Positions 6,441 to 14,484 of a DNA stretch of 19,595 nucleotides are shown here, one piece after another. A program made the position numbers and the translations under genes. Location: UHGV virus genome UHGV-0349066; one strand, 5' to 3'. Position 1 is the first letter of the stretch, and each line of letters starts with the position of its first letter. The notes under the pieces were generated by a model. The model was not told the origin of the DNA. It saw only the letters and a program-made list of their open reading frames with translations, and made no database searches. Source of the DNA: a virus.

Positions 6441-6481
6441 ATAAAAAAAAGAAAGGTAGTAGGGGCTTAGCCCCTACTACC
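6435..6481 (-). terminator. rho-independent terminator ending the fibre/adhesin gene block
   Basis: 12-bp stem GGTAGTAGGGGC / GCCCCTACTACC (6455-6466 / 6470-6481), loop TTA, followed on the minus strand by TTTCTTTTTTTTATTTTTT. Confidence 0.8.
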
Positions 6482-6487
6482 TAAAAA

Positions 6488-7108
6488 TTATTTCATTCCG
6501 TTCTGAGAAAGCGTTGTCCCTGTAAGATGCTTAATAACGATCTTAACAGGTAAATTACTATTCTCGTATTGTACTTCGGTTTCAGACAAATCGGTGATAT
6601 CGATAACTTTAGAGGGTAACTTCGCTAAAACAACACGAATGGTGTGGGTTATTGTACCCGCTGTGGTTTTTGTACCACTAACGTAGAAGTACGCATCAAT
6701 AATACCACCATCTGCTGCCAGGTAAACCAATTTATTTTCCAACAGACACTGGCTATAAATTGACACTCCAGATAATTGCGTAACACCCAGCCTGTTATTA
6801 ACGTCAACCGTTGTTTTGCAGATTACCGCACCACCTGTCAACGTTTTTTCTACCACCATATTTCCCGATAAGGTTTTTGCATCCATTTTTGGTATAATCG
6901 GATGAGCGCCGTCAACAAACAACCCATCGTTGTTAGACTTAAGGATGTTATTCGCCGACGGACTCACTGTAACCTCGGTACCCCCTAATTTCTCAATCGG
7001 GAGTTGGTATTCAGTTTGTTCCTTAGACGCTAAGACTACTACACCCGTGATGTCTTCTGAAAGTGTCTCCAGTTCATGAATGCGCACCTTTCCTACCAGT
7101 TCAGCCAC
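6488..7108 (-). CDS. short fibre-like protein sharing the N-terminal anchor domain of the long tail fibre (206 aa)
   Basis: GTG start at 7108 with GGAGGT 5 nt upstream; N-terminus MAELVGKVRIHELETLSEDITGVVVLASKEQTEYQLPIEKL aligns with the long-fibre N-terminus MAKAVKKIRLHDLRPYTGDIGEGVLLFSKDERDYQLPVREI. Confidence 0.7.
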   Translation of the reverse strand: MAELVGKVRIHELETLSEDITGVVVLASKEQTEYQLPIEKLGGTEVTVSPSANNILKSNNDGLFVDGAHPIIPKMDAKTLSGNMVVEKTLTGGAVICKTTVDVNNRLGVTQLSGVSIYSQCLLENKLVYLAADGGIIDAYFYVSGTKTTAGTITHTIRVVLAKLPSKVIDITDLSETEVQYENSNLPVKIVIKHLTGTTLSQNGMK

Positions 7109-7110
7109 TA

Positions 7111-7623
7111 TTAACCTCCAAAGGTTAAGACACGGTTATCTGCGGTAACGATTAAATCGTTGTCTTTTACTACAGCGGCTTCTTCATCGTTACCGAAAAC
7201 CAGAACGGAGAATTGGCCTTTATAACCTAACGAGTTGGGTGAAACCTGTAACGTTACAGCGTCTTTCCCCACGGTAAATGAATCGTCCTGAAGATCTTCG
7301 GGTTGCAGGTTACTGCCACAGGCTGCGTTAATCGCGTCGATTAAATCGTGTGTGCTAAACCCCTCACCAGTTACTTGCACCAGAATAGGTTGCTGGTTTA
7401 ACCAACGTTCTGCGGTTAAACGGTTGTAATAGATTTGTAACGTTCTGTTACCGGGACGTTTTATCTTTACAACAGCAGTGGTGTCACGATCCATTTCGTT
7501 ACTGGTCTTTACGTCGCTGACTTCAACCTCGTTCTCTTGCAAGTCGAGCTGGAGGTCATGGTTAACCAGTGAAATAACCATGTTAAGTGAAGTTAACGAC
7601 AAATCTGGCGTGAATTGTTCCAC
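7111..7623 (-). CDS. hypothetical fibre-associated protein, paralog of the 13829..14389 product (170 aa)
   Basis: GTG start at 7623 with AGGAGG upstream; shares motifs PDLSL, VNHD and CGSNLQPEDL with the other paralog (FCGTNLQPEDL). Confidence 0.7.
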   Translation of the reverse strand: MEQFTPDLSLTSLNMVISLVNHDLQLDLQENEVEVSDVKTSNEMDRDTTAVVKIKRPGNRTLQIYYNRLTAERWLNQQPILVQVTGEGFSTHDLIDAINAACGSNLQPEDLQDDSFTVGKDAVTLQVSPNSLGYKGQFSVLVFGNDEEAAVVKDNDLIVTADNRVLTFGG

Positions 7624-7678
7624 GTATGGTTACCTCCTATGATTGGGGAGACGTAAAATGTTGGCTAAAAACATTTCA

Positions 7679-7688
7679 CCCCCCCCCC
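7679..7688. repeat. homopolymer C10 (G10 on the coding strand) in an intergenic region
   Basis: Ten consecutive C at 7679-7688 between the gp38-like paralog stop (7723) and the start of the 7111..7623 gene, flanked by two AT-rich hairpins. Confidence 0.9.
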
Positions 7689-7722: not shown

Positions 7723-8166
7723 TTAACTGATTTTGAAATCTCTTAACGTACCAGTTGATTTCATCACGTTTTGGAACGCGGCACTAATGTTGTTGGTCCA
7801 GTAATAATGTTGACCATTAATAACCTGTTGATAAGTCAACGTACAAGTATTACCACCCAGGTTTACAGTAATGTTAGAAGCTCTCCCACCTTGTAAGTAA
7901 ACCGCTAAAGTAGGCTTTGCGTTGGTAAATATCGTCGTTAACTGTAACTCGATACCTACTAAAGTTCCCACCCCGCAGTTACCCGCGTTTTGAATGGTCC
8001 CCTGATTTTTCTGGTTTAACGGCCAGTTTGGTCCTACTGCACCCCATTTATTACCTAAGGAATCGCTATATGCGGCAGTTGCAATTTTACAGCCCATTGA
8101 TCGTCCCACCATTTGACTCATCATAAAAGGTCTACCCAATCCTAATTTACTACCCGCAGCGCTCAT
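7723..8166 (-). CDS. gp38-like adhesin paralog with divergent C-terminal domain; N-terminus apparently disrupted (likely extends to ATG at 8225 across a frameshift)
   Basis: Minimal ORF from ATG 8166. The in-frame sequence upstream back to the stop of the preceding gene encodes VDGVASGWVGSSARNETGEQW, homologous to the N-terminus of the 8242..9024 product; AAGGAGG plus ATG at 8225..8223 is in another frame, separated by a G4 run. Confidence 0.55.
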   Translation of the reverse strand: MSAAGSKLGLGRPFMMSQMVGRSMGCKIATAAYSDSLGNKWGAVGPNWPLNQKNQGTIQNAGNCGVGTLVGIELQLTTIFTNAKPTLAVYLQGGRASNITVNLGGNTCTLTYQQVINGQHYYWTNNISAAFQNVMKSTGTLRDFKIS

Positions 8167-8241
8167 CCATTGTTCGCCCGTTTCATTCCTAGCTGAAGAT
8201 CCGACCCATCCTGACGCTACCCCATCTACCCTCCTTTTTAA

Positions 8242-9024
8242 TTAAACACGTGAACCGTATATTGCACCTACTGCGTCCCATCTTGGCGCATTACCAGTAA
8301 CAGCTTTACCAGCTGCTCCGCCGTTATATTCTGTACCGTTACCATGAGTATTACATCTTCCTCCAGCAGCACCGACATTACCACCCGAACCGCCTGTATA
8401 TGCACTAAGAGACCCCTCACCAACAGATCCTTTACCAGGAGCGGAAATAGTACCAGCAGTTGCACCGGAACTCATATGAGAGGAAGACCCGCCAGCACCG
8501 AATGGGCGACCACCGCCACCACCAAATATTAGTCTACCCCTGTTACCGCCACCACCGCCGCCACCGCCTCCGGCAATAGCGCCACGGTTGGTTATACGCA
8601 GTCTGTTTCCTATTCCGTTCTGTATTGCGGTTCCACCTGCACCGCCTGGTGAGTTAGAACCGCCGTTGCCTCCTCTGCCGTATACTGTAACCCCAGGATT
8701 GATAACGAGTGTAATGGAGGAGTTCGGTAGGTCGCCAGGGAACTCTAAACAAGGAACTCCGCTACTATAAGACACTAAATCCCCCGTAATAGTCACAACG
8801 ACAGCAGTAGAGCCTAAAGAACGTAAATAGTTAATAAGAGTATCCTTATTATAGCTATGGTTAGCACCAATAGAATAATGGACCTCTTTTGATTTTCCCG
8901 CCAATTGCGACATCCAGCCTGGAACCGGCACACCAAGTGTGCGCATCGCGCCAGACATCCATTCGTTACCAGCTTCAGCTTTTGCTGAAGAACCAATCCA
9001 ACCACCTACGCCGACAACTGCCAC
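8242..9024 (-). CDS. T2-type gp38-like tail-fibre tip adhesin, glycine-rich (260 aa)
   Basis: GTG start overlapping the fibre TAG stop (TAGTG) with GGGAGA Shine-Dalgarno. N-terminus MAVVGVGGWIGSSA...WMSQLAG and motifs ITGDLVSYS, YGRGGNGG, AIAGGGGGGGGG, GGGGGRPFGAGG match my recollection of T2/K3-type gp38 adhesins with glycine-rich motifs. Confidence 0.75.
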   Translation of the reverse strand: MAVVGVGGWIGSSAKAEAGNEWMSGAMRTLGVPVPGWMSQLAGKSKEVHYSIGANHSYNKDTLINYLRSLGSTAVVVTITGDLVSYSSGVPCLEFPGDLPNSSITLVINPGVTVYGRGGNGGSNSPGGAGGTAIQNGIGNRLRITNRGAIAGGGGGGGGGNRGRLIFGGGGGRPFGAGGSSSHMSSGATAGTISAPGKGSVGEGSLSAYTGGSGGNVGAAGGRCNTHGNGTEYNGGAAGKAVTGNAPRWDAVGAIYGSRV

Positions 9025-12000
9025 TAGGATCTCCCTTTGATTTCGTTAACCTCTTGACGCAACGCTTTCATACCCTCTACTAACAGCGCAATAACACCAT
9101 TGTAGTTTAGACGTAAACGTTTTTCGCCTGAAATGACATCATCATCCTCAGACACAAGTTCAGGTAACGCTTCTAATGCGTCTTGAGCAATTAGACCTAC
9201 AGAGGTCTGCCAGCCGTCGTCAGGATGCTGAATTTCGTACAAATAACCGGTTAGTAACTCTAACCGATCCAAAGCTTTATCTAGTTTCACCAGATTACGT
9301 TTGTTACGACGGTCAGAACGAATCTGTACGTCGTTAAACGAACCGTTACCGCTGCCAGTAACGTTATGACCAAAGGTTACTTGACCGTTAGCATTATTAA
9401 AATACAACGGACGTAGACCGTTCCAGGAACCCGTTGCAGCTTGACCGGCGTCGGTTACTAAGAAATAGGTATTGGCACCATCGTTACGTAACATAAAGCC
9501 GTAGTTGCCGTAAGCGATTCGAAAATCAGGGTACTTAGTGACCAATTTACCGTTAACGGTTAAATCGCCACCTATAGTACCGCCCCCTGACGGTAACGCA
9601 CCGATGTCACCAGCGTTAGGCTTGTTGTGTGTGCTGTAAATCAGATAGACGGTACCGTCTGTTAGTCCTGCGGGTTTATTAGCCGTATAACTTGGCGATG
9701 TATGAATCGTTACGTTGGCATTACTAGTGTAATCCCACTGAATAGTAACACCGGTGGCGTAATTACCTATTTCAACATAAATATCGTAAGTGTCACCAGA
9801 TGTATTCACCCATGCAAAATTAGCGAAGCCGACTGAAGTCAGTCGCCATAACGCACCAGTAATACCTTTTGGATTCCCATTTCCTGCACGCAGAACCAGC
9901 TCAGAGATACCTGCTTGATGTGGGGAACCAACGTTAAACCCTGCACCACCAATCATGCTTATGTAAACCACGGAACTGGCTTGCGGCATCGTTACAGTTG
10001 CCAGTTTGAACCATCCGGCACCACCATTAAAAGACACAGTTGTTGTGTTCGCGGCACCAACATTTCGTAAGAATTTTCTCTTATCTGGAATATCGGCACC
10101 ATTCTGTTTCTTCTGCAATGACCCACCGGCCAATTCTACAGTTTGGCCAAGATTTAAACTTTCAGCCGTTATTTCGATGTTTTTGGTGCCGTCAAATGCG
10201 ATACCGTTAATGGTACGCGCTGTCTGCAATTTTGTTGCAGTGGCCGCGTTTCCGGTGGTCGACTGATTGCCCGTTTGGTTTACGCCAGGTAAGTTGATGT
10301 CTTTAGTACCATCAAAAGCTACACCACCTATATTTCGCGCAGTCTGGAGCTTAGTCGCTGTCGCGGCATTCCCCGTAGTCGATTGGTTACCGGTTTGGTT
10401 CACACCGGGCAGACTAATGTCTTGCGAACCGTCAAAGTTAACACCACCGATCTTACGTGGCGTTTGTAACTTAGTAGCGGTCGCTGCATTACCTGTCGTA
10501 TTCTGGTTACCTTGCTGGTTAACCCCCGGTAAATTGATATCCCCAGTACCGTCGAAGGTAACGCCCCCGATTCTGCGAGCGGTTTTCAGTTTCGTCGCGG
10601 TAGCGGCGTTGCCAGTAGTATCCTGATTACCGGTGGTATTTACACCAGGAATACTATCACGGGCAGTATAAACTTGTGCCCAATCTGACCACGGCGCATC
10701 CGCTGTATCACGTCGACTACGAATATAAACGGGTGCGTGCGCACCACTCGTGCCCGACCAACCAATTAACAGCTCACCTTCACCTAATGCGGCAGAACCA
10801 CCCAAATGCAGCAAGTTACCATAAGCGGTCGGATAACCGTTATTGTAAACTTCGTACATCTGAATACCAGGCGTACCTTTGTTTGAACCGGTTAGTGCAG
10901 TAACCCGACCACGACCTACCAGGGTGTTGATATTGATGTCAGCAGAACCATCGAATCTTACACCGTTAATATTTCTGGCGGTTTGAAGTTTAGTGGCTGT
11001 ACCAGCATTACCCGTGGTGTTTTGATTGCCCTGTTGGTTAACACCTGGGAGGTTAATATCACCACTACCGTCGAAAGCGACTCCACCAATTCTACGTGCG
11101 GTCTTTAATTTCGTTGCGGTTGAAGCATTGCCTGTTAACTCGCCTGCTAACCCTTTTGCAAAGGTCTGTTTTTCTGCCCAGGTGTGTGCTGCATTCAATA
11201 CAGGCATCTGTCGTGGTGTAATCGTACGACTACCTTTCTCACCAGCGATACGTACTGCAAAGAATCGATAGTTGGCAGTAGACACCGTACTACGCCAAAC
11301 CAACATACTCCGGCCTGATGTAGCGCCATCTGATGGACCAACCAGAATGCTAACTAGGTTACCGTCAATAACACCCCAATCCATTCCCGTAGGAATGTTT
11401 TTCATGGTGTTAAGCGGCGTACAGATTAACTCACCCGGTTTAAAGTCATAGGTTTGCCAGTCTAAAGGATCAACATTCGCACGTTCACCGCCGATACCTA
11501 ATACCAGCGGAAGCGAATACGATGTGAAAACCTCACGCCAATCGCTCCAAGCGTTACCCGTACGGATACGTTGAAATTTACGACCTTTAGTTTCTGTACC
11601 CGTACCGTAAGTAGTATAATTCTGTTCGACCCCTGTACCGTCTAAGCGTAAGGTAACTTCACAAACGCCTAATATGGTTTCACCAGAAGAACCGGTAAGT
11701 GGACCGTTAGTTGCTTCACCAGTGACACTGAAACGTCCCGGTTTAACGAGATCGTTAAAATTGGCTTTAAAGAAAGCACCGTCAGTCTGATAACCAACCT
11801 GAATCCAATCTTCCCATTGCGGGTTTGATGAATCCCATGTTGCGGTCAAACCACGAACATACATCGTACCACGACGTGTGGTGTATCGTTGCAACCGTCC
11901 GAAAAGACCACCTTCCATTACTTCTAGTACGCCTTGCGCGCCACCACCTTCTTCAGGGTAATGTCTGCTAAAAACAGCCAGCGAACTGCTTGAGTTTCGC

Positions 12001-13625
12001 CAGTTACCCATATGCTCAGCGCCACCCAAACTGTTCAAGTCTATAGCGGTAGATAATGGACGTACACCAGTAGTTACCATTCTCCACGGTGACCAGGGTC
12101 CATTGGCACCATTCCACTCGCCACTCAGCATACGGTTGTACACGTTACCATTACGACAGGTAAAACGCTGTGCGCCACTGTAATTACCGGCTTTATACAC
12201 TTCCAGATAACCGACTGCACCGTCTTCTGGGAAATGTTTTGCCATCGACGCATTGGTTGACGTCGACTTAGCCCACGTTCCTGTGTAATTGGCATCTGGA
12301 GCAAATGTGTTAATATCAGCATCTACAGGCATTTCGCCACGGAAACGCAGATAAGTGTCAGGAGACAGACCGATATTGCGAGCAAACGTTTCTTTATCTG
12401 GGATATCAGCGCCGTTAGAGTTTTTCTGTAACGCGCTATTCGCTTTATCTACAGTGGCTTTTAATCCCAAGAAATTGATGATATCCGCAGTTGACCCTTT
12501 CGCTAACAAGGATCTGGCCGTTTCTGTAAAATCCGTTAATCCGACTTTATTACTGCCAGTGAAATACATGAGTTTATTTGCCGCTGTGGTGACTGCGGCA
12601 ATGGCGGTGAGCAACGGACTGAGGGGTTGTTTCTGCGCAAGTTCCCCAGTAATCGTTGTTGCGAAGTTAGGGTCATTACCTAACGCCTCAGCTAATTCCG
12701 CTAAGGTATTTAACGTCTCGGGTGAAGAACCAACCAGTTCCGCAATCGCGTCACGCACCCAGGCCGTTGTGGAAATACTCGTGTCGTTTGAATCTTTCGG
12801 GGGTGTTGGGGATGACGGTTTACCCGTAAAATTCGGCGAATGTTTATTGGCTTTTAACTGTAATTCGTCATTCAGCTGTTTAACCGTGGACGGTGTGGCA
12901 GCCTCAGTCACGGATTCGCTAGTCAGCGTATCGTTAAGTTTAACGATACCTTTACCGGTTGTACTAGCGTCGATTAAGCCCTGCGCAGCGATTTTCTCCG
13001 CACGTAAGGCAGCTGACTCCGAACGTGTTGCTGCGCCCTCTGAACTTTCTTTATCTTTCGCGACCTGTGCAGCAATCTTCTCCACTGCGCCCTTACTGGC
13101 CTCAACTGAAGCCGCAGTATTCTCGACACCGGTAGCCGTCTGTTGGACTTGTCCGGCCTGTTGCGTAACCGTTTCTGCTTTCTTAGTTACATCAGCCGCT
13201 GCAGCCGTCACCGATTGTTCGCTTGTGGCGACAGCTTGAGCTTTCTCATTTACCGACTGTAATACAGTATCTACGGCAGTTTTCGCGGCTAAAACTTCAG
13301 CGTGTTTTTTGTTAACCTCAGCAGTTTTAGTGGCAACGGTTCCCGCTTGCTCGCTAACGGTGGAAGCTAACGTGTCAGTTTGTTGCTTCGCTGTTTCTGC
13401 TAAGTCTTTTGCTTGTGTGGCTTCTGTTGCAGACTGTTGTGATTTGGCCGCAGCCGTTTGTGCGTCAGCAACCGCGTTTCTGACGGTGTCAATATCCGCA
13501 ACAATCTCGCGGACAGGTAACTGATAATCCCTTTCGTCTTTCGAAAAAAGTAAAACGCCTTCACCGATATCCCCGGTGTATGGACGTAAATCGTGTAAAC
13601 GAATTTTCTTTACCGCTTTAGCCAT
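9024..13625 (-). CDS. long (L-shaped-type) tail fibre protein with C-terminal intramolecular chaperone / autoproteolytic domain (1533 aa)
   Basis: ATG at 13625; Ala-rich coiled-coil stalk; fibre motifs TLNTLAELAEALGNDPNFATT; 40-aa tandem repeats (GNAATATKLQTAR..FDG..DINLPGVNQ); C-terminal SDRRNKRNLVKLDKALDRLELLTGYLYEIQ...GLIAQDALEALPELV...NYNGVIALLVEGMKALRQEV typical of peptidase-S74-type chaperone domains. Confidence 0.9.
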   Translation of the reverse strand: MAKAVKKIRLHDLRPYTGDIGEGVLLFSKDERDYQLPVREIVADIDTVRNAVADAQTAAAKSQQSATEATQAKDLAETAKQQTDTLASTVSEQAGTVATKTAEVNKKHAEVLAAKTAVDTVLQSVNEKAQAVATSEQSVTAAAADVTKKAETVTQQAGQVQQTATGVENTAASVEASKGAVEKIAAQVAKDKESSEGAATRSESAALRAEKIAAQGLIDASTTGKGIVKLNDTLTSESVTEAATPSTVKQLNDELQLKANKHSPNFTGKPSSPTPPKDSNDTSISTTAWVRDAIAELVGSSPETLNTLAELAEALGNDPNFATTITGELAQKQPLSPLLTAIAAVTTAANKLMYFTGSNKVGLTDFTETARSLLAKGSTADIINFLGLKATVDKANSALQKNSNGADIPDKETFARNIGLSPDTYLRFRGEMPVDADINTFAPDANYTGTWAKSTSTNASMAKHFPEDGAVGYLEVYKAGNYSGAQRFTCRNGNVYNRMLSGEWNGANGPWSPWRMVTTGVRPLSTAIDLNSLGGAEHMGNWRNSSSSLAVFSRHYPEEGGGAQGVLEVMEGGLFGRLQRYTTRRGTMYVRGLTATWDSSNPQWEDWIQVGYQTDGAFFKANFNDLVKPGRFSVTGEATNGPLTGSSGETILGVCEVTLRLDGTGVEQNYTTYGTGTETKGRKFQRIRTGNAWSDWREVFTSYSLPLVLGIGGERANVDPLDWQTYDFKPGELICTPLNTMKNIPTGMDWGVIDGNLVSILVGPSDGATSGRSMLVWRSTVSTANYRFFAVRIAGEKGSRTITPRQMPVLNAAHTWAEKQTFAKGLAGELTGNASTATKLKTARRIGGVAFDGSGDINLPGVNQQGNQNTTGNAGTATKLQTARNINGVRFDGSADININTLVGRGRVTALTGSNKGTPGIQMYEVYNNGYPTAYGNLLHLGGSAALGEGELLIGWSGTSGAHAPVYIRSRRDTADAPWSDWAQVYTARDSIPGVNTTGNQDTTGNAATATKLKTARRIGGVTFDGTGDINLPGVNQQGNQNTTGNAATATKLQTPRKIGGVNFDGSQDISLPGVNQTGNQSTTGNAATATKLQTARNIGGVAFDGTKDINLPGVNQTGNQSTTGNAATATKLQTARTINGIAFDGTKNIEITAESLNLGQTVELAGGSLQKKQNGADIPDKRKFLRNVGAANTTTVSFNGGAGWFKLATVTMPQASSVVYISMIGGAGFNVGSPHQAGISELVLRAGNGNPKGITGALWRLTSVGFANFAWVNTSGDTYDIYVEIGNYATGVTIQWDYTSNANVTIHTSPSYTANKPAGLTDGTVYLIYSTHNKPNAGDIGALPSGGGTIGGDLTVNGKLVTKYPDFRIAYGNYGFMLRNDGANTYFLVTDAGQAATGSWNGLRPLYFNNANGQVTFGHNVTGSGNGSFNDVQIRSDRRNKRNLVKLDKALDRLELLTGYLYEIQHPDDGWQTSVGLIAQDALEALPELVSEDDDVISGEKRLRLNYNGVIALLVEGMKALRQEVNEIKGRS
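10134..10613 (-). repeat. four tandem ~120-bp coding repeats within the tail fibre gene (40-aa units GNAATATKLQTAR.IGGV.FDG..DINLPGVNQ.GNQ.TT)
   Basis: Protein residues about 1005-1164 show period-40 repeats; the DNA copies differ mainly at synonymous positions. The ORF track shows the repeat as mirrored plus-strand ORFs 10006..10266 and 10267..10626. Confidence 0.8.
10893..11132 (-). repeat. two further copies of the 120-bp fibre coding repeat
   Basis: Protein residues about 832-911 (GNASTATKLKTARRIGGVAFDGSGDINLPGVNQQGNQNTT, GNAGTATKLQTARNINGVRFDGSADININ...). Confidence 0.75.
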
Positions 13626-13706: not shown

Positions 13707-13828
13707 CTGGTTTTAATCCATCATCTTCTAACGTGAAAGTGATGCCCAACTCCGCGCTTCATGATTTGGGATTGTTAAGTTTTGATAAATGTTTGCTTTG
13801 ACCTCCATTACCGGTAAAACGGTCAAGT

Positions 13829-14389
13829 TCATGTAGCCGGGTTTTCTTCAGCTGTGTCGTCATCTGGAACCTCAAAGGTAAGAACAGCATCATCACCAAT
13901 ACAGAAGATCGCGTCATCTTCGTTTGCTAATGCTCGTTCGGTTGTATCGAATAACGTTACCATAAACGCATTCATCCACGCAGGAGAATCGTCAGCAACG
14001 TTAACAGCAATGGGTTCGTTACCTAAGGTGATATCTGCAGCACGTAAATCTTCGGGTTGTAAGTTCGTTCCGCAGAATTCATTTACAACACCTAAAATGT
14101 CACGAAGGTTGTCTTCGGTACCATCTAACGAAATCAAAATAGGTTCAGACGCTAACACTTCGTCCGCATCCAAACGGTCGTAATAAACAACCACAGAAGC
14201 ACCATCAGGTTTCCTGATTTTTGTAATCTCTGTCAGTGTGTTACGACGCGAAGTGGTCGGGGACGGGTTTGCCATAGTGTTGCTAATACGGATTTCGTTT
14301 AGAGACAACCGTGAACCGTTATCGTGGTTGATTAAAGCGACCACTAATTCGGCTGAGGCCAGACTTAAATCAGGTACGTAAGTAGTCAC
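13829..14389 (-). CDS. hypothetical fibre-associated protein, paralog of the 7111..7623 product (186 aa; start refined)
   Basis: GTG at 14389 with GGGAGG 5 nt upstream; start position matches the paralog start (MTTYVPDLSL vs MEQFTPDLSL). The ORF-track N-terminal extension to 14458 is the translated terminator hairpin and T-run. Confidence 0.7.
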   Translation of the reverse strand: MTTYVPDLSLASAELVVALINHDNGSRLSLNEIRISNTMANPSPTTSRRNTLTEITKIRKPDGASVVVYYDRLDADEVLASEPILISLDGTEDNLRDILGVVNEFCGTNLQPEDLRAADITLGNEPIAVNVADDSPAWMNAFMVTLFDTTERALANEDDAIFCIGDDAVLTFEVPDDDTAEENPAT

Positions 14390-14404: not shown

Positions 14405-14450
14405 CAAAAAAAAAATAAAAACACCTACCGCCCATAGAATCGGGCGGTAG
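14405..14450 (-). terminator. rho-independent terminator, 6 nt upstream of the ribosome-binding site of the 13829..14389 gene
   Basis: 9-bp GC-rich stem CTACCGCCC / GGGCGGTAG (14425-14433 / 14442-14450), 8-nt loop, then GTGTTTTTATTTTTTTTTT on the minus strand. Confidence 0.75.
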
Positions 14451-14484
14451 GCAGTCATTTTACAGCTAAAAATCGAAGTAGTTA

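Follow-up and report, generated by a model that had tools for sequence, protein, structure and literature searches.

A two-gene cassette, in which a short DUF7941 protein is encoded next to a protein bearing an N-terminal anchor of about 41 residues, was found in the 19,595 nucleotides of DNA from the virus genome UHGV-0349066 (the window) and in other giant phages. The two short proteins of the window, here called A and B, are paralogs of the DUF7941 family with the fold of phiKZ gp127, their genes belong to a conserved pairing with anchor genes, and the cargo behind the anchor is exchangeable. Our preferred reading, to which we give an even chance, is that A and B serve as structural docking adaptors, not as chaperones, and sit at the baseplate periphery in jumbo phages. 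We infer here that adaptor and anchor are in physical contact, that the adaptors reside in the virion and that the paralogs differ in their pairing. The cassette as a whole probably serves as a plug-in mount on which host-recognition fibres can be interchanged.

The minus strand carries all genes of this region of the window, and the features needed for the argument are the following.

14422 to 14453, minus strand: rho-independent terminator that precedes A and delimits the fibre cassette on its upstream side (13-bp stem with 8 GC pairs, then a T-run)
13829 to 14389, minus strand: paralog A, a short-form DUF7941 protein of 186 amino acids, orthologue of SPN3US gp122
13759 to 13863, minus strand: 34-codon remnant of a gp123-like anchor gene, a deletion scar (anchor HMM, E 3e-7)
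9024 to 13625, minus strand: long tail fibre of 1533 amino acids with T4-like fibre repeats, a Gp34_trimer domain and an S74 intramolecular chaperone
13503 to 13625, minus strand: jumbo-phage anchor of the long fibre, residues 1-41
8242 to 9024, minus strand: T-even-type Gp38 adhesin of 260 amino acids (PF05268, E 1.7e-69)
7723 to 8166, minus strand: second, Gp38_N-related protein of 147 amino acids (PF21721; phrog_1121, 'tail fiber adhesin')
7111 to 7623, minus strand: paralog B, a short-form DUF7941 protein of 170 amino acids (Pfam DUF7941, 62.6 bits; 34% identity to A)
6488 to 7108, minus strand: anchor-bearing protein of 206 amino acids with an all-beta C-terminal domain (phrog_33169 at the C-terminal end)
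6986 to 7108, minus strand: anchor of the 206-residue protein, residues 1-41
6454 to 6482, minus strand: rho-independent terminator closing the cassette (13-bp stem with 8 GC pairs, then a T-run)

The two terminators bracket a cassette of about 8 kb, in which the genes follow in the order A, long fibre, Gp38 adhesin, Gp38_N-like protein, B and 206-residue protein. The first-pass annotation had placed a partner gene directly upstream of each anchor-bearing protein. This holds for B and the 206-residue protein, whose genes are separated by a spacer of 2 nt. Between A and the long fibre there is a gap of 203 nt that contains a truncated third anchor gene, and this adjacency is secondary, as described below. 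The 206-residue protein was also modelled from its single sequence by AF2, which gave an unusable model (pLDDT 37).

The part of the cassette from 7723 to 13625 (minus strand) is a T-even-type host-recognition set within an SPN3US-like jumbo phage. The long fibre has T4 gp34/gp37-like repeats grafted onto the jumbo-phage N-terminal anchor, and the Gp38 adhesin gene has 82-92% nucleotide identity to RB49/JSE/Phi1-like phages. This set is a clear inter-family mosaic. When phage GenBank records were searched at the nucleotide level, the Gp38 segment was the sole match and the phage had no close relative among those records. Another peculiarity is a run of about ten G at 7678-7688 (minus strand). 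It falls within the 99 nt that precede B and is part of an imperfect but conserved hairpin (GGGG..AAATGTT-loop-AACATTT..CCCC). The run varies in length from about 8 to 12 among the relatives and is interrupted in two of them. This variation may affect the expression of B and of the 206-residue protein, or it may be sequencing noise.

The paralogy of A and B had been claimed from shared motifs, and the alignment confirmed it. A and B aligned from end to end with 34% identity and 56% positives (E 3e-35), and the two are true paralogs. The motifs PDLSL...NHD and CG(S/T)NLQPEDL were found as described, whereas the tail motif is VLTF and not AV.TF. The GTG start codons behind a strong Shine-Dalgarno sequence were likewise found, as AGGAGGT-N8-GTG for B and GGGAGGT-N4-GTG for A. 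A longer open reading frame of 209 residues that starts at an ATG was considered for A and rejected as spurious, because its extra codons are the rho-independent terminator at 14422-14453. The A-type orthologues have 186-188 residues, in agreement with the GTG-started A of 186 residues.

Both proteins were assigned to DUF7941 (PF25613) with scores of 68.4 bits for A and 62.6 bits for B against a curated gathering threshold of 27 bits. Both matched the N-terminal half of the profile, from position 3 to about 160 of 276. Their PHROG matches are annotated 'virion structural protein'. A and B matched only these and DUF7941, and no chaperone family of Pfam or PHROG. The closest characterised relative is SPN3US gp122 (45% identity to A, 31% to B), which makes the phage of the window an uncultured relative of SPN3US, a giant Salmonella phage. 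A protein identical to B is indexed in 36 blocks of a public assembly collection. In the SPFM Salmonella phage records P0013 and P0071, the gp122 homologues have sequence blocks in an apparently reversed order, which suggests an artefact of assembly or annotation.

The fold of the family points to the baseplate. A profile of the family found phiKZ gp127 (PDB 9XQD chain 0) with an E value of 1e-19, and A and B have the N-terminal globular domain with this fold followed by a flexible tail. In an AlphaFold2 model of A, made with an alignment of 32 sequences, residues 1-150 form a confident domain, whereas the tail (residues 155-186) has a pLDDT below 50 and is predicted to be disordered. Both A and B thus consist of a globular domain of about 150 residues and a short, conserved C-terminal tail that ends with ...D-D-x-V-L-T-F. 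Despite the predicted disorder, the D..V-L-T motif of the tail is invariant across the gp122-type proteins, which would be the pattern expected of a short binding motif. Where A and B stop after a tail of about 20-30 residues, phiKZ gp127, an outer peripheral baseplate protein, is a long form of 290 residues with a C-terminal globular domain.

[quoted passage not shown] The first-pass annotation had offered an adaptor, a chaperone or a baseplate-attachment factor as functions for the partner. Since the homology is to gp127 of the fibre attachment platform, an adaptor or baseplate-attachment function is favoured over a chaperone. The phiKZ fibres themselves (the gp131 family) have an N-terminal attachment segment that differs from the anchor found here.

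The family has been linked to host recognition in phage Goslar. The purified DUF7941 protein gp22 of Goslar forms filaments that were seen by negative stain, and AlphaFold predicted head-to-tail contacts between DUF7941 proteins via the linker or tail (bioRxiv 10.64898/2026.04.21.720040). Some members of the family bear carbohydrate-binding, hydrolase or LRR domains, and the authors propose baseplate-anchored DUF7941 fibres, some of them with sugar-binding or hydrolase domains (bioRxiv 10.64898/2026.04.21.720040). Goslar gp23, with 180 residues, has the same architecture as A and B, an N-terminal domain and a linker; for one virion the estimates are about 580 copies of gp22 and 2140 of gp23 (bioRxiv 10.64898/2026.04.21.720040). 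In a library of viral structures, fold matches were found to proteins of 639-829 residues that begin with a DUF7941 N-terminal domain, one of which is annotated 'tail fiber protein' in the Serratia phage Moabite. These fused forms link the domain to fibre display. The relatives L003-L008 have two further, adjacent DUF7941 genes (282 and about 159 residues) about 8 kb downstream of B and outside the window. In all relatives these lie directly upstream of an endolysin gene (Glyco_hydro_108), which brings the DUF7941 genes around the fibre region of this lineage to at least four.

The pairing of a partner gene with an anchor gene was followed in related phages, and the synteny comparison bore out the first-pass annotation in this point. 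In SPN3US, gp122 is followed by gp123 with an overlap of 1 nt. In Asesino, gp139 is followed by gp140 with an overlap of 17 nt, and in L003 a gene of 187 codons is followed by one of 153 with an overlap of 35 nt. The pair is also present in Lh1B, where the anchor protein has 161 residues and was missed by the tblastn search with the anchor. Among the metagenome loci that were fetched with an A-type partner and whose DNA covered the downstream gene, the next intact gene bears the anchor in 11 of 11.

As an independent lineage, the Klebsiella phage Eowyn, which belongs to a different genus, provided the strongest evidence for the generality of the pairing. In a stretch of 25 kb, five short DUF7941 genes (172-221 residues) interleave with genes for seven anchor-bearing fibre, spike or beta-helix proteins, and three of the partner/anchor pairs are only 2-12 nt apart. 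The seven Eowyn anchors are homologous and read MAxxxxxKKLxDLPxY......GxLLYxE....YQLP at the start of the protein; one of the seven proteins had been left out when the anchor model was built. This region is probably a multi-depolymerase display system. Directly after its last pair there is a transposase gene (L019, record 200000-225000). Across the phage GenBank records that were searched, the anchor turned up in the same phage groups as the short-form DUF7941 genes. The regions scanned in Goslar and SA002 have DUF7941 genes of the long form, and no anchor was detected in them. We conclude that the partner-plus-anchor gene pair is a real and conserved unit.

The anchor itself behaves as an exchangeable tag. 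The 206-residue protein and the 1533-residue fibre have their 41 N-terminal residues in common (41% identity, E 2e-8). The consensus, MAxxVKKxRLHxL..Y.GD...GVLLFSKD..xYxLP, covers about 41 residues from residue 1 and is followed by variable cargo. It is present in the long fibre, the 206-residue protein, SPN3US gp123, Asesino gp140, the 161-residue protein of Lh1B and the seven Eowyn proteins. A profile search that covered 1.84 billion representative proteins returned 16 full-length matches, all of them starting at residue 1, in proteins of 31-1494 residues. Behind the anchor, the cargo can be a T4-like fibre, a SASA carbohydrate esterase with DUF6645 or Ig-like domains, among others. In the case of the esterase, the homology to many prophage tailspike-like genes usually sets in at residue 39-47, directly behind the anchor, and this onset of homology reads as the signature of a modular exchange of cargo.

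Several other searches had negative or chance results. A word-indexed search of proteins by the anchor profile yielded three fragments only, and a locus search with P0095 gave no match. Compared with solved structures, the anchor had chance-level matches only (E > 0.1). Weak tblastn matches in Felix O1-like phages (E 0.1-0.9) were located C-terminally in a small protein of the early region and were rejected as chance. Compared by hhalign with the linker or tail of DUF7941, the anchor had no detectable similarity (probability 0.03), and the idea that the anchor mimics this linker or tail and docks alike was dropped on this result.

The first-pass annotation had also proposed that partner and anchor protein were duplicated and diverged together, and the divergence of the two agrees with this. 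Among the partners B is the outlier, with 31-37% identity to the others, while partners from separate phage lineages have 41-49% identity to one another. The anchor of the 206-residue protein is likewise the most diverged of its set, with 38-45% identity to other anchors and 30% to the divergent anchor of L017. Most other anchor pairs have 48-57%, and the anchor of the long fibre groups with the gp123-type anchors. The mirrored divergence of B and the 206-residue anchor fits the idea that the cassette was duplicated as one unit, and the grouping of the long-fibre anchor suggests that A serves both the gp123-type and the long-fibre anchors.

Sister genomes showed how A came to lie next to the long fibre. 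In most of the relatives that were read, the order is a DUF7941 gene (187 residues), the genes for a 153-residue protein and a 1001-residue tail protein, the long fibre, Gp38, the Gp38_N-like protein, B and then either the 206-residue protein or a deletion. The 153-residue protein bears the same anchor, and the long fibre of the sister genomes lacks a partner gene of its own immediately before it. Positions 13741-13822 of the window stand in for positions 779-4163 of L003, about 3.4 kb with the genes for the 153- and 1001-residue proteins. Of the lost anchor gene, the initial 34 codons persist at 13759-13863, and the sequence of this remnant begins MTTQLKKTRLHELDRFTG. A therefore adjoins the long fibre after a deletion of about 3.4 kb that removed its ancestral neighbours; the adjacency is real in the window but secondary. 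Synteny and the deletion scar led us to reject an ancestral cognate pairing between A and the long fibre. The same deleted architecture was found in the viral-catalogue contig L013 and in five metagenome contigs (L102-L105, L107), and four of the six are near-complete at 200-229 kb. The deleted architecture is a real lineage and not an assembly artefact.

The second cassette has also lost a neighbour in some genomes. Most of the gene for the 206-residue protein (window 6614-7108) is missing in L003, L005 and L008, where B is unchanged. The gene is absent from most sister genomes, many of which keep B, just as A is kept where the gp123/gp124-like genes were deleted. Both partners thus outlive the loss of their immediate neighbour. 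The gp124-like protein appears to be dispensable when the long fibre is present, since the genome type without gp123/gp124 homologues recurs in four near-complete contigs. Partners and anchors occur in ratios of 2:2, 2:3 and 5:7. These unequal counts give no support to the earlier proposal that each partner is specific to one fibre variant, and both the counts and the retention of A and B without their neighbours weigh against the adaptor reading.

The location of the partner in the particle was assessed with published proteomics of the orthologue in SPN3US. Spectral matches to gp122 numbered 7, 7 and 8 in wild-type virions, whereas tailless heads had none, a pattern shared by gp123 and gp124 (PMC10052503 Table S2). 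The authors classed gp123 and gp124 as tail proteins and gp122 as 'Non-virion'; the spectral counts of gp122 barely exceed those of other proteins in the non-virion class (PMC10052503 Table S2). In the 2017 virion data gp122 was undetected, and its membership was suspected in 'paralog family B', which comprises roughly 20 head proteins including gp83, gp138-154, gp161 and gp237 (PMC5694885). This suspicion was confirmed here by Pfam, where gp138-141, 143, 145, 148, 154 and gp122 all match DUF7941, and A and B align with the gp138-154 proteins. A and B could accordingly be capsid-associated like the rest of family B and unrelated to fibres, and most of the other SPN3US DUF7941 paralogs were indeed found in tailless heads (PMC5694885; PMC10052503). 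However, when am107 tailless heads are compared with whole wild-type virions, gp138 has 292 and 282 spectral matches and gp122 has 0 and 22 (PMC10052503 Table S2). Presence in tailless heads, which marks family B, is thus not seen for gp122 in these data, which are for the orthologue and not for the window phage. The genes are moreover placed inside a fibre cassette bounded by terminators, and the solved homologue, phiKZ gp127, is in the baseplate. A function of A and B in the head is therefore highly improbable. For the family as a whole the published locations are contradictory. The family B proteins of SPN3US are equally abundant in tailless heads and in virions, whereas in the Goslar preprint the peripheral baseplate is given as the family's location, and phiKZ gp127 was modelled there (PMC13250141). 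The head finding in SPN3US conflicts with a purely baseplate location of the DUF7941 family.

A chaperone would bind the anchor of the nascent fibre transiently for folding, trimerisation or delivery to the baseplate, and it would not be retained in the virion. The failure to detect gp122 in 2017 and its 'Non-virion' class with low spectral counts in 2023 agree with such a role (PMC5694885; PMC10052503), and so does the tight translational coupling to the fibre gene, which is also typical of chaperone/client pairs. However, the gp122 peptides were reproducible in tailed virions and never seen in tailless heads (PMC10052503), the fold of the domain is that of a bona fide baseplate component, and other DUF7941 members are abundant virion proteins. 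The long fibre already has its own S74 intramolecular chaperone and Gp38, and it is to these other genes of the cassette that the S74 and Gp38 matches belong, whereas A and B match no chaperone family. Known fibre chaperones are usually encoded downstream of the fibre gene, whereas the partner gene here is upstream. We consider a chaperone function quite unlikely on these grounds. It is also rather unlikely that A and B are independent fibre subunits, short links or caps in a cloud of DUF7941 filaments that make no contact to the anchor, with the gene pair reflecting only the clustering of host-recognition genes. The Goslar model needs no separate receptor-binding partner (bioRxiv 10.64898/2026.04.21.720040), which is in line with this possibility, as are the partner and anchor counts that depart from 1:1, the survival of B after the loss of the 206-residue protein and the missing sequence link between anchor and DUF7941. 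Clustering alone would not readily explain the regular alternation with overlaps of 1-35 nt or spacers of 2-12 nt in two distant lineages, the occurrence of short-form DUF7941 genes and the anchor in the same phage groups, with no anchor in the scanned long-form regions of Goslar and SA002, or the mirrored divergence of partner and anchor.

A docking adaptor would work as follows. The adaptor and the fibre would be made together from tightly coupled genes. The adaptor would join the baseplate rim, or another DUF7941 subunit, with its gp127-like domain or its tail, and would offer a site to the N-terminal anchor of about 41 residues on the receptor-binding protein encoded next door. Recombination just past the anchor could then capture new receptor-binding cargo, and duplication of the two-gene cassette would allow one virion to carry several different fibres. 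The number of cassettes is 1 in SPN3US, 2 in the lineage of the window and at least 5 in Eowyn. A bolder version, which we put forward tentatively and consider doubtful, is that the short DUF7941 protein and the 41-residue anchor form a hitherto undescribed plug-and-socket code by which fibres are mounted on the baseplate of jumbo phages. Each paralog would then be a link in a hetero-oligomeric rim chain that displays one specific receptor-binding protein, and the number of cassettes would set the variety of fibres.

Branched tailspikes of the CBA120/Phi92/G7C type and the hyperbranched fibres of Klebsiella jumbo phages have a conserved N-terminal attachment module. They combine it with interchangeable receptor-binding cargo and several different fibres per virion, and the cassette described here follows the same logic. 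Like SPN3US, with its gp122 orthologous to A and its gp123 bearing the same anchor, the lineage of the window has the first cassette. SPN3US has this single cassette, whereas the window lineage has a second, diverged one with B and the 206-residue protein, and has grafted a T4-like long fibre onto the anchor; in the genome type of the window the gp123/gp124 homologues have been lost. In Goslar, as here, the DUF7941 family is tied to host recognition and some members have sugar-binding or hydrolase domains. However, the recognition domains of Goslar are fused to DUF7941, whereas here they are on a separate polypeptide with its own 41-residue anchor, encoded in a two-gene cassette. Such a split cassette of a short DUF7941 protein and an anchor-tagged fibre is not described in the literature that we found mentioning DUF7941. 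The family has already been described, and the split cassette is a new variant of this recently described family.

The 2026 cryo-EM studies of phiKZ and Goslar leave much of the peripheral baseplate and the fibre attachments unmodelled. The conserved cassette of DUF7941 and the 41-residue anchor provides a concrete, sequence-defined hypothesis for the attachment of fibres in giant phages. It also ties the 'paralog family B' of SPN3US to the baseplate and fibre system and exposes the conflict between a head and a baseplate location. The window is a natural mosaic, in which a T4-type long fibre and a Gp38 adhesin are carried on a jumbo-phage anchor. With the boundary of the anchor at about residue 40-45 as a guide, receptor-binding proteins could be predicted in jumbo-phage genomes, and new ones could be grafted onto these phages. 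If the plug-and-socket reading is true, the host range of these phages would be open to re-engineering by a swap of the cargo behind the anchor.
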